Notes: generated from the letters alone by a model not told the origin. Numbered from the stretch's first letter, positions 6,529 through 14,154 are shown. The stretch: DNA of 64,000 nt from Pseudomonadales bacterium (GCA_024234215.1 JACKOQ010000001.1:479674-543673), one strand, 5' to 3'. Numbers and translations: made by a program.

Positions 6529-7815
6529 ATGGTCACACTGACTACCATTCTGGCCTCTCTGCACCGAGCGTTGGCCTGGCGCCCCGGCGGCTACCTGCGC
6601 GCCAGTGGCGCGCTGTTTGGCTGGCTCGCCGTGCGTACCTTGGCGCAGACCGTGCTGTTTATACTGGTGGCGCGCACGCTGGGTGCGAAGGGGTACGGAG
6701 AGCTGGTTTCGGTCATGGCCTTGGCTGGCGTTTTTTCCTTTGCAGTGATGGGGGTTTCGGCCGTCTTGGTACGTGAGGGGGCGCGCGATCCGCTCCGGTT
6801 GCCGCAGCTTGTCGCGGATATGGTTCGACTCTGGCTGTTCTACATGCCAGTGCTGTGTGCACTTGCATTTGGCATCACCCTGCTGCTTCTTGGCGACCTG
6901 GTGCCCATATCGGCCGCGGCTGCCATCATCATGGCCGAGGTGGTGTGTGCGACTGCCGTGGATGGAATTGGTCGCATCTACCAAAGTCAGGACCGTCTGG
7001 CCATGATGGGTCTGGTGTCCAGCGGCTTGATGCTCATCCGGCTGGCAACCTTTGTCGTCTTGAGTCCGTTTCTGCACTGGACCGTGACGACATGGGCCTT
7101 CGGCTATTTGGCTGGCAGTGCGGGTTACCTTGGAATTCTGATTCTGATGATGAATCGCAGTTCGCTGCGCATCAAGGGAGAATCAATAGCCCATACGGCA
7201 AAAGCCAGTTTGCCTTTTTCGTTCTCGTATGCCGCGCAGAAAATACAGGCCGAGATCAACAAACCGCTGTTGGCACGTATCAATGACGTCTCTGGCGCTG
7301 GAACACTGAGCGCCGCGCAAAGATTTACCGATCTACTGCTGCTGCCCATTCTGGCCATGGTCGAAACACTGTCACCGCGCGTCTATCGCTCGGAGCGTCC
7401 GGTGGCGACGACCTTTACGCTCGGTTTGGTCCCCCTCGCCACGGCGATAGTGGGTGGCGGCGCTCTGGTCGCGGCGGCGGAAGCCATTCCCTGGATTCTG
7501 GGGCCGAGCTTCGAGGCATCCGTCCCGGCCGTCGTTCTGCTGGCCGCCCTGCCAGCCGTGCAAGTGTTTCGCTGGCTGCTGGGCACGGCCGTGACCGGCC
7601 TCGATCTTCACCGCCATTTCTATTTCGTCCACGGCGCCGGTGCAGTGACGAACGTCCTGCTGGTGGCGTCACTGGCCGCCACTTTTGGGCTGACCGGAGC
7701 GATATGGGCGGCCTACGGTACAGAGACAGTGCTCATCGTCATTCAGGGCTGGATACTCATATGGAGCCCCCGTGGCTTCAAGTCTTCTTCAAGGCTCGCG
7801 AGGAGCTTGAATTGA
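6529..7815 (+). CDS. wzx: Wzx-type (MOP superfamily) oligosaccharide/polysaccharide flippase
   Basis: About 428 aa with 12 or more hydrophobic spans and the typical polysaccharide biosynthesis protein layout. Start chosen at MVTLTT (6529). An alternative upstream start is at 6430. Confidence 0.7.
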   Translation: MVTLTTILASLHRALAWRPGGYLRASGALFGWLAVRTLAQTVLFILVARTLGAKGYGELVSVMALAGVFSFAVMGVSAVLVREGARDPLRLPQLVADMVRLWLFYMPVLCALAFGITLLLLGDLVPISAAAAIIMAEVVCATAVDGIGRIYQSQDRLAMMGLVSSGLMLIRLATFVVLSPFLHWTVTTWAFGYLAGSAGYLGILILMMNRSSLRIKGESIAHTAKASLPFSFSYAAQKIQAEINKPLLARINDVSGAGTLSAAQRFTDLLLLPILAMVETLSPRVYRSERPVATTFTLGLVPLATAIVGGGALVAAAEAIPWILGPSFEASVPAVVLLAALPAVQVFRWLLGTAVTGLDLHRHFYFVHGAGAVTNVLLVASLAATFGLTGAIWAAYGTETVLIVIQGWILIWSPRGFKSSSRLARSLN

Positions 7816-8579
7816 AAGTCGTCATCCTCGCCGGCGGCCTCGGCACCCGGTTGGCCGAAGAGACCACCATCCGCCCCAAGCCGATGGTCGAGATCGGCGG
7901 CAAGCCGGTGCTGTGGCACATCATGAAGAGCTACTCCGCCCACGGCCTGCACGACTTCATCATCTGCCTGGGCTACAAGGGCTATCTGATCAAGGAGTAC
8001 TTCGCCAACTACTTCCTGCATTCGTCGGACGTCACCTTCGACATCGCCAACAACCGCATGGAAGTGCATCAGAAGGAGGTCGAACCCTGGCGCGTGACGC
8101 TGGTCAACACCGGCGAAGACACCAGCACCGGCGGGCGGCTGCGGCGGGTGCGGGACTACGTCGGTGAAGAGGATTTCTGTTTCACCTACGGAGACGGGCT
8201 CAGTGACGTCGACATCGCTCGCCTGATTGCCTTTCACCGCGCGCACGGCAAGGTCGCCACTGTGACGGCCGTGCAGCCACCAGGCCGCTTCGGCATGCTC
8301 GGCATGGACGGCACCAGCATCACCTCGTTTCTGGAGAAACCGGCCGGGGACGGCGCCTGGATCAATGGCGGCTATTTCGTACTCTCGCCGCGCGCGTTCG
8401 ATTACATCGACGGGGACGACACGGTCTGGGAGCGCGAGCCGCTGGAGCGACTGGCGCGCGACCAGCAACTGAGCGGCTTTCTGCACCACGGTTTCTGGCA
8501 GCCGATGGACACGCTGCGCGACCGGAACCTGCTCGAATCACTGTGGGACAGCGGACAGGCGCCGTGGAGGAGCTGGTGA
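7812..8579 (+). CDS. rfbF: Glucose-1-phosphate cytidylyltransferase
   Basis: (L/M)KVVILAGGLGTRLAEETTIRPKPMVEIGGKPVLWHIMK...GFWQPMDTLRD is a near-canonical RfbF/DdhA sequence. TTG start at 7812 with AGGAG at 7801, overlapping the wzx stop. The track ORF 7704.. is an N-terminal over-extension. Confidence 0.9.
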   Translation: MKVVILAGGLGTRLAEETTIRPKPMVEIGGKPVLWHIMKSYSAHGLHDFIICLGYKGYLIKEYFANYFLHSSDVTFDIANNRMEVHQKEVEPWRVTLVNTGEDTSTGGRLRRVRDYVGEEDFCFTYGDGLSDVDIARLIAFHRAHGKVATVTAVQPPGRFGMLGMDGTSITSFLEKPAGDGAWINGGYFVLSPRAFDYIDGDDTVWEREPLERLARDQQLSGFLHHGFWQPMDTLRDRNLLESLWDSGQAPWRSW

Positions 8580-12353: not shown

Positions 12354-13474
12354 AACCGCGCATCCCGTACACCAAGCCGTCGATCACTGAGCTGGAGGTC
12401 CGCTACGCCACCGACGCGGCGGCGAACGGCTGGGGTGAGCACTGCTACGACTACATCCTGCGATTCGAGGAAGCGTTCAAGACTCACCTCGGCGTCGGGT
12501 ACGCCATTGCAACGTCCAGTTGCACCGGCGCGCTCCATATGGGCATGGCCGCACTCGACATCGGGCCGGGTGACGAAGTCATCATGGCCGACACCAACTG
12601 GATCGCCAGCGCCGCGCCCATCGTGCACTTGGGCGCAAAGCCGGTGTTCGTGGACATCCTGCCCGACTCCTGGTGTCTGGACCCGGCGCTGGTCGAACAG
12701 GCCATCACGCCTCGTACCAAGGCCATCCTCGCGGTTCACCTGTACGGCAATCTCTGCGCGATGGACGAACTGCTCACGCTTGGCGAGCGGCATGGCATCC
12801 CGGTCATCGAGGATGCGGCGGAGGCCATCGGCTCGGTCTACCACGGCCGGCGTGCCGGTTCGATGGGCCGATTCGGCGCGTTTTCCTTTCACGGCACCAA
12901 GACGCTGACCACCGGCGAAGGCGGCATGTTCGTCACCAACGATGCCGACCTTTACGAGCGGGTGCTGACGCTCAGCAACCACGGCCGCGCGCGCGGACAA
13001 ACCAAACAGTTCTGGCCCGACGTGGTCGGCTTCAAATACAAGATGTCCAACATCCAGGCCGCCATCGGCTGTGCCCAACTGGAACGCATCAACGAACTGG
13101 TCAACCGGAAGCGGGAGATACTCGCGTACTACAAGGCGCGGCTGGAACGACTCCCAGGCGTCAAGATGAATCCGGAGCCGCCGGGCACCATCAATGGTGC
13201 CTGGATGCCGACGGTCGTGTTCGATCATTCTCTCGGCATCGCGCGCGAGATGCTTCAAGCGGTGTTCGCTGAGGAGAACATCGATGCAAGGGTGTTCTTT
13301 TATCCGCTATCTGGATTGCCGCCGTTCGAAAAGAACAACATCAATCCGCTGGCCACCAGTATTCCAGAGCGCGCGGTCAATCTTCCCAGTTATCATGACA
13401 TGACGATTGTGGAACAAGACATGGTGATTTCGCCGTTGCTGAACATTACCAAAAGCATTGTGAAGTGCCAATGA
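12350..13474 (+). CDS. DegT/DnrJ/EryC1/StrS-family PLP-dependent sugar aminotransferase
   Basis: IPYTKPSITELE...TSSCTGALHM...VIEDAAEAIGS...FSFHGTKTLTTGEGGMF, with the catalytic Lys retained. The ATG at 12350 overlaps the upstream TGA. The track ORF 11492..13474 is an out-of-frame N-terminal extension through the previous gene. Confidence 0.9.
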   Translation: MKPRIPYTKPSITELEVRYATDAAANGWGEHCYDYILRFEEAFKTHLGVGYAIATSSCTGALHMGMAALDIGPGDEVIMADTNWIASAAPIVHLGAKPVFVDILPDSWCLDPALVEQAITPRTKAILAVHLYGNLCAMDELLTLGERHGIPVIEDAAEAIGSVYHGRRAGSMGRFGAFSFHGTKTLTTGEGGMFVTNDADLYERVLTLSNHGRARGQTKQFWPDVVGFKYKMSNIQAAIGCAQLERINELVNRKREILAYYKARLERLPGVKMNPEPPGTINGAWMPTVVFDHSLGIAREMLQAVFAEENIDARVFFYPLSGLPPFEKNNINPLATSIPERAVNLPSYHDMTIVEQDMVISPLLNITKSIVKCQ

Positions 13475-14154
13475 ACACGAGACCCGTGCGTTTGGGAATC
13501 ATTGGCTCTAGCGGTGGCAGCGCGCTTGCTGCGGCTGCTGAATGTCTTGTCGAGGCGGGCAAACATGTCGATTGGGTTGTTGTGACAGATCGCCAGTGTG
13601 GCTTGGAGGACTGGGCGAGAGGGCGCGGCCTCTCGCCCAGTCGCATTGATTACAAAGATGCTGAGACATTTTCAAAGAGTGCATTCGAAACGTTTCGCGC
13701 AGCCGACTGCACTAACATTTTGTTGTTCTACACGCGTCGGGTTGCCTCGCCGCTGATCGACAGACTCAGAGTCTGGAATATTCATCCTTCATTATTGCCC
13801 GCTTTCCCCGGGCTTCATGCGGTTCGCGACGCAGCAGCGGCAGGAGTACGACTTTTCGGTGCAACACTTCACCATGTCGATTCGGGGCTTGATTCTGGAA
13901 AAATCGTTGCTCAGGTTGGCGCGCCTTTTCCCGCATCATTGAAGCTGGACGATGTGGAGCATGTGAGCTACCTGCAGAAAGTATGGCTGACGCTTATCTG
14001 GTTTGAGCAGCTGCATCATTCTCACTGTCATGTCGATTCAAGAAATTCATATTTGCCAGGCGTGGCAATATCGAATCCCTCTCTTCTGGATAATGGACTG
14101 AAGCTTGCGTACCTGAATTTTCTGGCGCGATCCGAAAGACTACTCAGTCAATGA
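13471..14154 (+). CDS. Formyltransferase (PurN/GART fold), probable sugar N-formyltransferase
   Basis: RLGIIGSSGGSAL..., catalytic region VWNIHPSLLPAFPGLHA and GATLHHVDSGLDSGKIVAQ. ATGA overlap with the aminotransferase stop. The sugar substrate is inferred from context. Confidence 0.7.
   Translation: MNTRPVRLGIIGSSGGSALAAAAECLVEAGKHVDWVVVTDRQCGLEDWARGRGLSPSRIDYKDAETFSKSAFETFRAADCTNILLFYTRRVASPLIDRLRVWNIHPSLLPAFPGLHAVRDAAAAGVRLFGATLHHVDSGLDSGKIVAQVGAPFPASLKLDDVEHVSYLQKVWLTLIWFEQLHHSHCHVDSRNSYLPGVAISNPSLLDNGLKLAYLNFLARSERLLSQ

Follow-up and report, generated by a model that had tools for sequence, protein, structure and literature searches.

A predicted CDP-linked, C-methyl-branched amino sugar cassette with a WbqC/PurN-like capping module in a Pseudomonadales bacterium

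What sugar is made by an operon that opens with the enzymes of CDP-glucose metabolism and runs on into an epimerase, a C-methyltransferase, an aminotransferase and a formyltransferase? The question is raised by a 64,000-nucleotide stretch of a Pseudomonadales bacterium genome (GCA_024234215.1, JACKOQ010000001.1:479674-543673; hereafter the window, meaning the whole stretch analysed), in which the genes at 7812-14154 had been read as a pathway to a CDP-linked, formamido, C-methyl-branched 6-deoxyhexose. Computational analysis of these genes and of related loci suggests a modified answer. The cassette may make a CDP-activated, C-methyl-branched, O-methylated 4-amino-4,6-dideoxyhexose whose amine is capped by a two-enzyme module, made up of a WbqC-family protein and a PurN-like formyltransferase (FT); we hold this reading to be evenly poised between right and wrong. 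The WbqC/PurN-like module is the interesting part of the locus.

The operon runs past the formyltransferase gene

Open reading frame (ORF) calls, together with profile matches, placed all seven genes of 7812-14154 on the + strand, in the order in which they were first listed. The first two encode RfbF, a glucose-1-phosphate cytidylyltransferase (7812-8579, with a TTG start; TIGR02623, PF00483), and RfbG, a CDP-glucose 4,6-dehydratase (8579-9652; TIGR02622). A 932-bp vapBC insert parts RfbG from the next gene of the sugar pathway, which encodes an RmlC-like nucleoside diphosphate (NDP)-4-keto-6-deoxyhexose epimerase of the 3,5- or 5-epimerase type (10585-11133; PF00908, TIGR01221). This is followed by a TylC3/TcaB9-type NDP-hexose C-methyltransferase (C-MT) with a four-cysteine zinc ribbon (11130-12353; PF08421, PF13489, PF08484), a DegT-family pyridoxal phosphate-dependent aminotransferase, predicted to act at C-4 (12350-13474; PF01041), and the FT, a PurN-like, N10-formyl-tetrahydrofolate-dependent enzyme of 227 aa (13471-14154; PF00551).

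The translational coupling of these genes was borne out, most junctions being overlaps of 4 nucleotides (nt). Such overlaps were found for RfbF with the preceding Wzx flippase gene (TTGA), for RmlC/C-MT, C-MT/DegT and DegT/FT, and for the FT with the WbqC gene downstream; the overlap of RfbF with RfbG is a single nt (TGATG). For the FT, the most probable start is the ATG at 13471 rather than the GTG at 13465. The end of the unit had been set at 14154, which falls two genes short. The operon continues with the WbqC-family gene (14151-14873, + strand; PF08889), the product of which is proposed to add an aminoacyl spacer, and with a gene for a CmcI/rhamnosyl-O-methyltransferase-family methyltransferase, predicted to O-methylate the sugar (14851-15627, + strand; PF04989), the start of which overlaps the end of WbqC (14851 vs 14873). 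Both belong to the unit. The gene arrangement is not due to chance; many contigs independent of one another show the same order. Among the window ORFs scanned, no second NDP-sugar pathway able to feed the late enzymes was found.

Related loci were collected by scanning one genome per species. A C-MT at least ~60% identical to that of the window occurred in at least 570 genomes, and the neighbourhood counts given here refer to the best 80 of these loci, the upstream region being visible in 72. The CmcI-type protein matched PF04989 with 333 bits (E = 9e-100) and scored 98 bits on the rhamnosyl O-methyltransferase equivalog model NF045824 (cutoff 400), so that it is not that equivalog. A CmcI gene lay downstream of C-MT in 45 of 66 genome loci, irrespective of the chemistry at C-4. 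Because WbqC and the CmcI-type O-methyltransferase are both part of the conserved cassette, the predicted product is very likely O-methylated as well.

Early genes point to amination of a C-methylated CDP-4-keto sugar

RfbF matched TIGR02623 over its full length (454.7 bits, cutoff 300.25), and RfbG matched TIGR02622 with 516.2 bits (cutoff 278.45), reaching only 96 bits on the dTDP-glucose dehydratase model (cutoff 365). Both equivalog models were therefore passed. As genes for RfbF, RfbG and the RmlC-like protein also lie directly upstream of C-MT in 55 of the 72 loci, entry into the pathway through CDP-glucose is supported. The RmlC-like protein gave a strong match to PF00908 (201 bits, E = 1e-59) and a marginal pass on TIGR01221 (158.2 bits, cutoff 155.75). 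Its catalytic His, Lys, Tyr and Asp residues align with those of Salmonella RmlC (1dzr), with the motifs GLHFQ, KLVRC, LLY..TAFY and SPRD.

The C-MT has three domains (PF08421, 85 bits; PF13489, 57 bits; PF08484, 212 bits), and the cysteines of its CxxC...CxxC zinc ribbon are at residues 3, 6, 46 and 49. It could be matched end to end to the solved structures of KijD1 (5t64, E = 9e-82), MtmC (4rv9) and TcaB9 (3ndi), with E-values in the range 1e-72 to 1e-82. These three are 3-C-methyltransferases, each of which needs a 4-keto sugar, and C-methylation of a 4-keto intermediate is supported.

The DegT protein (PF01041, 405 bits, E = 5e-121) keeps the Schiff-base lysine in the motif SFHGTK. Its nearest solved relatives are the GDP-perosamine synthases 3bn1 and 3dr4, and ArnB and WecE are other close C-4 aminotransferases. 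No 3,4-ketoisomerase or 2,3-dehydratase that could create a 3-keto group was found in the cluster. Amination is predicted at C-4, since this carbon bears the sole keto group available and the best solved relative is a GDP-perosamine synthase. CDP entry, C-methylation next to a 4-keto group and amination at C-4, as originally proposed, thus draw support from the equivalog models, from synteny and from these relatives. The reported lack of a DdhC/DdhD-type 3-deoxygenation pair and of a 4-ketoreductase also holds. Among the cluster ORFs of 1.5-18.6 kb there was no second DegT/E1-like gene, no E3-type (DdhD) reductase, no 4-ketoreductase and no SDR other than RfbG, and the lysine-bearing DegT scored 162 bits on the RfbH/E1 model, below its cutoff of 423. 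The genes follow one another in the only order of reactions that makes chemical sense, namely dehydration, epimerisation, C-methylation and transamination.

The formyltransferase is PurN-like and is always found with WbqC

Profile searches placed the FT closest to PurN, at some distance. It scored 66.4 bits on the PurN model TIGR00639 (cutoff 150.1), with only residues 9-156 aligned, 45 bits on PurU, 28 on fmt, 28 and 22 on ArnA-type models and 19 on the VioF-type model. Matches to sequences in the PDB followed the same pattern, with PurN proteins (glycinamide ribonucleotide (GAR) transformylases) at 8e-17 and sugar FTs at 2e-6 or weaker. When the AlphaFold2 (AF2) model of the FT (pLDDT 86) was submitted to Foldseek, ranks 1-25 were all GAR transformylases (TM 0.62-0.73), and PurU, ArnA, Fmt and WbkC ranked below them. 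The FT lacks the C-terminal extension seen in enzymes of the Fmt/ArnA type. By sequence and predicted fold, the FT is PurN-like and lies outside the sugar-formyltransferase clade.

In 33 family members the catalytic residues Asn103, His105 and Asp141 do not vary, and the S13/G16 loop, equivalent to the phosphate loop of PurN, is also invariant. The FT belongs to a distinct clade (97 clusters at 50% identity, E ≤ 1e-30). The FT gene was followed by WbqC in 12/12 independent contexts, down to 33% FT identity, and always came after DegT, with CmcI on the far side of WbqC. All 12 contexts examined were sugar cassettes, and none was a purine operon. From this context, the FT may formylate the amine of an NDP-amino-sugar. 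The natural substrate of PurN is glycinamide ribonucleotide, and the step proposed below would be a reaction of the same type; by our own atom count, five atoms lie between the amide nitrogen and the phosphate in GAR, and five in an NDP-4-amino-hexopyranose.

The cassette is conserved and modular

Carriers of a C-MT at least 60% identical to that of the window were found in Proteobacteria, Planctomycetota, Verrucomicrobiota, Bacteroidota, Acidobacteriota and Actinomycetota, and include rhizobia, Cupriavidus, Pseudomonas and Mycobacterium. No Azotobacter locus was among the best 80. In Sinorhizobium meliloti 1021, genes annotated as ddhA, ddhB and 'NDP-hexose 3-C-methyltransferase' are present on pSymB (PMC4053727). 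The predicted CDP/C-methyl core is thus widespread in genomes and not rare. The nucleotide carrier of the proposed sugar had been called unusual, and this is only partly upheld. We found no paper on a CDP-linked N-formyl sugar, much relevant literature lying outside the search, but the claim is weakened by the spread of the C-MT, proteins at least 60% identical being encoded in 570 or more species genomes, for the most part next to RfbF/RfbG, and by CDP-vinelose, a CDP-linked branched sugar known since the 1960s. Nor was a biochemical study of a combined CDP and C-methyl pathway found in the literature searched, with the same limit on its coverage.

The full eight-gene order RfbF-RfbG-RmlC-CMT-DegT-FT-WbqC-CmcI, without vapBC, recurs in unrelated loci (L002/L003, L005/L006, L073 and L094), with partial versions in L007, L095, L096 and L100-L104. 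In some copies DegT and FT are separated by two genes, for a PhyH dioxygenase and for a methyltransferase. At least 24 contigs, two NCBI metagenome-assembled genomes among them, carry the window locus itself, including vapBC (97.5-99.97% identity), and for this reason it is assigned to an abundant uncultured bacterium, of which GCA_035910235.1 and GCA_035331485.1 are assemblies. On two JGI contigs from the same organism (L092, 7231-9324; L093, 6966-9324), C-MT and DegT were called as fragments or fusions. Over both stretches the DNA aligns colinearly with that of the window (97.5-97.9% identity, small indels), so that the frameshifts are probably sequencing or assembly noise, and a reading as pseudogenes or gene loss was rejected.

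After C-MT, the cassette takes one of two branches. One continues with an SDR reductase, sometimes with a second methyltransferase, and CmcI. The other continues with DegT (directly after C-MT in 24 of 66 loci) and one of several N-tailoring modules, followed by CmcI. Among modules without WbqC are a NeuD/PglB/VioB-type left-handed beta-helix (LbH) hexapeptide acetyltransferase (12 loci) and a classical ArnA/VioF-like FT between DegT and CmcI (L054, Bosea robiniae, 12287-13090; L009). Both families acylate sugar amines directly. Modules with WbqC combine it with the PurN-like FT, with PhyH, a methyltransferase and a PseH-like GNAT, or with a methyltransferase, an SDR and an ATP-grasp protein. 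A further module of the DegT branch is an S-adenosylmethionine (SAM) methyltransferase. In the cassettes examined, classical FTs and LbH acetyltransferases never co-occurred with WbqC. The interchange of N-tailoring modules at one position is good evidence for a 4-amine as the product of DegT, which would later be N-derivatised, with formylation as one solution in use. The classical FTs of L054 and L009 constitute a predicted second, independent route of N-formylation inside the same CDP/C-methyl cassette.

Several variants were seen beside these. On a Ralstonia wenshanensis megaplasmid (L001, 8989-17089), the order RfbF-RfbG-RfbC-DegT-PhyH-MT-GNAT-WbqC-GT2, where MT is a methyltransferase, occurs without a C-methyltransferase amid flagellar genes (fliE...fliD), and resembles an island for the glycosylation of flagellin with a CDP-linked 4-amino sugar. 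In nine loci of the reductase type (L010, L015, L018, L025, L026, L033, L035, L059 and L085), a second methyltransferase of ~358 aa with a partial Methyltransf_14 match lies between the reductase and CmcI, which points to further methylation in the neutral-sugar variants.

WbqC and the E. coli O121 antigen

The WbqC protein of the window matched PF08889 over its full length (223.5 bits, cutoff 21.3, E = 4e-66), and its AF2 model had a pLDDT of 91. The family has no NCBIfam model. No literature on WbqC function was found in the full texts searched. In the contexts examined elsewhere, WbqC was always near a DegT aminotransferase plus acyl- or methyltransferases, and it stands beside sugar aminotransferases from Bacillus to E. 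coli O121.

The O121 O-antigen cluster (O121:H19, NZ_CP022407.1, 375.6-390.4 kb; L107, 10630-25443) contains the order rfbB-rfbA-DegT(VioA)-WbqC-GNAT, and its WbqC is homologous to that of the window (26% identity, E = 9e-27). In blastn searches, window wbqC had no match in E. coli genomes. Within E. coli, wbqC was found in only 13 of 5426 complete genomes, all with the O121 O-antigen cluster; one of the 13 (strain ML775) is labelled O103, yet its gene is of the O121 type. The N-acetyl-glycine of O121 sits on Qui4N. Its amide linkage in the antigen has been described (PMC7685785). As all other genes of the cluster have obvious roles, WbqC and the GNAT are the sole candidates for glycine addition and acetylation. 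A comparison of the O121 GNAT with the GNATs of WbqC cassettes revealed only the generic GNAT core in common, and orthology between them was not supported.

Proposed pathway and alternatives

In the pathway we propose, RfbF would form CDP-glucose, an activity assigned from its family, and RfbG would convert this to CDP-4-keto-6-deoxyglucose. The RmlC-like enzyme would then epimerise beside the keto group, probably giving the L-series, and C-MT would methylate the carbon alpha to the keto group, most likely C-3. The DegT enzyme would convert the 4-keto group to a 4-amine. WbqC would join a small aminoacyl spacer, most likely glycine, to this amine, and the PurN-like FT would formylate the amine of the spacer, as PurN does on glycinamide ribonucleotide. 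Finally, the CmcI-type enzyme would O-methylate a ring hydroxyl, probably O-2, to yield a CDP-4-(N-formyl-aminoacyl)amino-4,6-dideoxy-3-C-methyl-O-methyl-hexose. From this product the GT2 and GT4 glycosyltransferases and Wzx of the cluster would assemble a glycan for the cell surface, the type IV pilin encoded immediately upstream being a possible carrier. The steps up to transamination, and the O-methylation, are inferred from family membership, colinearity and conserved synteny; spacer addition and formylation would follow from co-occurrence and from the analogy with E. coli O121.

A WbqC-added spacer capped by a second enzyme is the most economical reading of the modules, because cassettes without WbqC use direct amine acylators while those with WbqC use PurN-like, PseH-like GNAT or ATP-grasp cappers. 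More generally, WbqC, whose family is widespread, could be the missing enzyme that joins an amino acid (glycine, both here and in O121) in amide linkage to the amine of NDP-amino-sugars, with a PurN-derived FT clade recruited to cap the resulting glycinamide. The pair would then re-create the consecutive action of PurD and PurN on a CDP-sugar and give an undescribed N-formylglycyl, C-methyl, O-methyl 4-amino-6-deoxyhexose; to this fuller version we give slightly less than an even chance. Several points weigh against a two-enzyme cap and the product drawn from it. No ATP-binding or ligase motif was recognisable in WbqC, and no structural or sequence relative was found in the PDB, the best Foldseek match being PaaA/E1-like (E = 0.019, TM 0.31). 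Matches of this strength were not taken as evidence of adenylation. In the operon FT precedes WbqC, the reverse of the order in which the two enzymes would act, and WbqC is assigned the glycine addition of O121 by elimination only. The identity of the amino acid, the positions of C-methylation (C-3 or C-5) and O-methylation and all stereochemistry are predictions that draw on the precedents of vinelose and kansosamine, and the use of CDP rather than another nucleotide by the downstream enzymes is predicted from synteny only.

The main rival retains the formamido sugar as first drawn. Here the PurN-like FT would formylate the sugar 4-amine directly, giving CDP-4-formamido-4,6-dideoxy-3-C-methyl(-O-methyl)-hexose, and WbqC would serve an unrelated or accessory step. 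This is the simplest chemistry, with precedent in the known dTDP-, GDP- and UDP-4-formamido sugars. The Asn-His-Asp triad is intact, the FT gene follows DegT immediately with a 4-nt overlap, and the classical sugar FTs in the same slot of L054 and L009 suggest that N-formylation of this 4-amine is used. Direct formylation would, however, leave unexplained why the FT clade is paired with WbqC in 12/12 contexts while classical FTs and LbH acetyltransferases never are, and why a PurN-type scaffold is used instead of a sugar-FT scaffold. It would also leave no candidate for the addition of glycine in O121. Because the FT is never without WbqC, and the classical cappers are without it, direct formylation is perhaps not the best reading, and we regard it as possible but on the unlikely side. 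Of the original reading, a CDP-linked, C-methyl 4-amino-6-deoxyhexose with an N-formyl cap is well supported, by protein families, by colinear gene order and by a synteny that is both conserved and modular, but direct placement of the formyl group on the sugar amine is called into question by the likeness of the FT to PurN and by its tie to WbqC. In another reading the FT would be a PurN of purine synthesis, housekeeping or spare, linked to the cluster by location only, and the pathway would end at a free or otherwise modified 4-amino sugar; PurN is indeed the closest characterised family by sequence and fold. This is very hard to reconcile with a PurN equivalog score of 66 bits where the cutoff is 150, with translational coupling on both sides of the gene, with sugar cassettes rather than a purine operon in 12/12 clade contexts, or with a clade so distinct and sizeable (97 clusters at 50% identity, E ≤ 1e-30), and we give it hardly any weight.

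Two further readings concern other parts of the pathway. The first follows the logic of the Arn system, with a transient N-formylation that draws an unfavourable transamination forward; the sugar would be transferred to polyprenyl phosphate by the GT2 at 3572-4441, flipped, deformylated and placed on the pilin by a 651-aa membrane protein, so that the mature amine would be free or differently substituted. DegT and FT do share one cluster with a GT2 matching ArnC, AglJ and PpgS, and a multi-pass protein with homologues labelled as O-mannosyltransferases is encoded near the pilin gene. Against this, these matches are all far below the family cutoffs, an ArnD-like deformylase was not found among the cluster ORFs, and elsewhere the cassette is part of ordinary polysaccharide clusters of the Wzx or ABC type that have no such partners, which makes the scheme improbable. 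Somewhat less improbable, though still unlikely, is the same pathway with another regiochemistry, in which methylation at C-5 (as by NovU/CloU in noviose) or a C-3-only epimerase would lead to a 5-C-methyl or D-series sugar. The TylC3 family has both C-3 and C-5 enzymes, RmlC-like proteins include mono-epimerases, and the sequence fixes no position; the best solved C-MT relatives, KijD1, MtmC and TcaB9, are all 3-C-methyltransferases, and vinelose and kansosamine are both 3-C-methyl sugars.

Relation to known systems

The first two enzymes, and the intermediate CDP-4-keto-6-deoxyglucose, are shared with the CDP-3,6-dideoxyhexose pathway of Salmonella and Yersinia (RfbF/DdhA, RfbG/DdhB, DdhC/E1, DdhD/E3). 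The window, however, is without E1, E3 and 4-ketoreductase, and its enzymes would instead epimerise, C-methylate and transaminate the 4-keto sugar. Like TylC3, TcaB9, KijD1 and MtmC, C-MT has a three-domain build, a four-cysteine zinc ribbon and a predicted need for a 4-keto sugar, but those enzymes use dTDP-sugars in actinomycete natural-product clusters, whereas C-MT stands behind RfbF/RfbG in surface-glycan clusters of many phyla.

With the sugar FTs (the ArnA N-domain, VioF, WbkC, FdtF/WlaRD and Rv3404c), the window FT has in common the superfamily, the Asn-His-Asp triad and a place after DegT in a nucleotide-sugar pathway. It differs in belonging to the PurN branch, in having no Fmt/ArnA C-terminal extension, in its association with CDP and in its pairing with WbqC. 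PurN is the closest relative in sequence and fold, and the proposed glycine ligation followed by formylation would mirror PurD and PurN. Unlike PurN itself, the FT is below the family cutoff, is diverged in its C-terminal third, has no purine context and would act on a nucleotide-sugar, and PurD, an ATP-grasp enzyme, is unrelated to WbqC. A comparable module is found in the Qui4N(N-acetylglycyl) genes of E. coli O121 and Shigella dysenteriae 7 (rmlB-rmlA-vioA-wbqC-GNAT). There, too, DegT is followed by WbqC and an N-acyl capper, and the sugar is an N-acyl-aminoacyl 4-amino-4,6-dideoxyhexose. That system is dTDP-linked, lacks both the C-methyl and the O-methyl group and has a GNAT and an acetyl cap where the window has a PurN-like enzyme and a predicted formyl cap; its WbqC is only 26% identical to that of the window.

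Precedents for the sugar itself come from two sources. CDP-vinelose (6-deoxy-3-C-methyl-2-O-methyl-L-talose) is a CDP-linked sugar that was isolated from Azotobacter vinelandii in the 1960s, and kansosamine, of the Mycobacterium kansasii lipooligosaccharide, is a 4-acylamino-4,6-dideoxy-3-C-methyl-2-O-methyl-L-mannose. Jointly, they hold every feature of the predicted product except the formyl cap. The sister cassettes of the reductase type, with SDR and CmcI after C-MT, match vinelose. Kansosamine is matched by a locus of Mycobacterium sp. Marseille-P9652 (L047, 8582-16610) with the order RfbF-RmlC-CMT-DegT-ATP-grasp-SDR-TylF-type O-methyltransferase-RfbG-like dehydratase. As L047 has the ingredients expected for N-acyl-kansosamine, a name that appears in PMC4403928, mycobacterial sugars of this type may be CDP-derived. 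The widespread RfbF-RfbG-RmlC-C-MT(-CmcI) core supplies candidate genes for CDP-vinelose and for sugars of the kansosamine type.

The N-formyl-sugar pathways that are known to us from enzyme studies all use dTDP, GDP or UDP and FTs of the Fmt/ArnA type. If our proposal is true, the cassette would add a route through CDP and, among the FTs of sugar pathways, a second class derived from PurN. The WbqC family would gain a concrete function, and the enzyme that adds glycine to O121 Qui4N would have a candidate. N-formyl and branched-chain sugars are strong antigenic determinants.

The vapBC insert and base composition

The insert is predicted to encode a VapB-like antitoxin (9826-10050, + strand), with weak, sub-cutoff matches to DUF2281 and VapB, and a VapC PIN-domain toxin (10031-10477, + strand; PF01850), the two genes overlapping by 20 nt; both stand outside the sugar chemistry. 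VapC matched PF01850 with 36.7 bits (cutoff 23.6) and the VapC subfamily model TIGR00028 with a sub-cutoff 45.9 (cutoff 73.6). The insert contains one promoter-like site, at 9748-9776, and no terminator-like site was found in it. None of the related cassettes has it, and in them the RfbG and RmlC genes share a 4-nt overlap. In the window it occupies 9653-10584, exactly at the RfbG/RmlC junction, which is a mosaic breakpoint: compared with L002/L003, RfbF is 64% and RfbG 51% identical, while RmlC through DegT are 89-90% identical.

The GC content at third codon positions (GC3) is 0.50 in FT and 0.47 in WbqC, against 0.77-0.90 in neighbouring genes (0.79-0.90 for RfbF through DegT). As both have foreign GC3, FT and WbqC look like a recently imported module that arrived together. 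The GT2 gene at 15690-16847 also has an atypical GC3 (0.56).

The surrounding glycan cluster

The operon lies within a larger glycan cluster that adjoins a type IV pilin gene (1066-1494, + strand), recognised by its N-terminal sequence and TIGR02532 prepilin domain; the pilin is a possible glycan acceptor. Because of this location the sugar may decorate pili, and pilin glycosylation by the cluster sugar is plausible. The next gene (1535-3490, + strand) encodes a 651-aa multi-pass membrane protein with a C-terminus resembling tetratricopeptide repeats (TPR), possibly a protein glycosyltransferase of the GT-C type. It had no significant Pfam or NCBIfam match, and the only annotation of its homologues is by automated labels, which read 'protein O-mannosyl-transferase' or 'TPR repeat protein'. 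The GT2 at 3572-4441 (+ strand; PF00535) resembles polyprenyl-phosphate glycosyltransferases, and its best NCBIfam matches (AglJ, ArnC, dolichyl-P hexose transferase and PpgS) were all sub-cutoff. The genes of 1066-4441 may form a lipid-carrier, GT-C-type pilin glycosylation system.

Between these and RfbF are genes for a GT4 glycosyltransferase (4434-5660, + strand; PF00534, PF13439), a class I SAM methyltransferase (5644-6372, + strand; PF13489, PF08241) and the Wzx-type flippase (6430-7815, + strand; PF01943). Downstream of the CmcI-type gene are the GT2 glycosyltransferase at 15690-16847 (- strand; PF00535), a GT4 glycosyltransferase (16786-17847, + strand; PF13692, PF00534) and a class I SAM methyltransferase (17871-18590, + strand; PF13489), which is the last gene of the glycan cluster. 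The rest of the window scanned consists of housekeeping genes. At 18767-22513, a 906-aa NDP-forming acyl-CoA synthetase (CoA-binding and ATP-grasp_5 domains) fused to a GNAT domain is encoded on the - strand, with a histone-deacetylase-family gene beside it in divergent orientation (21518-22513); the two could be a protein acetylation/deacetylation pair.

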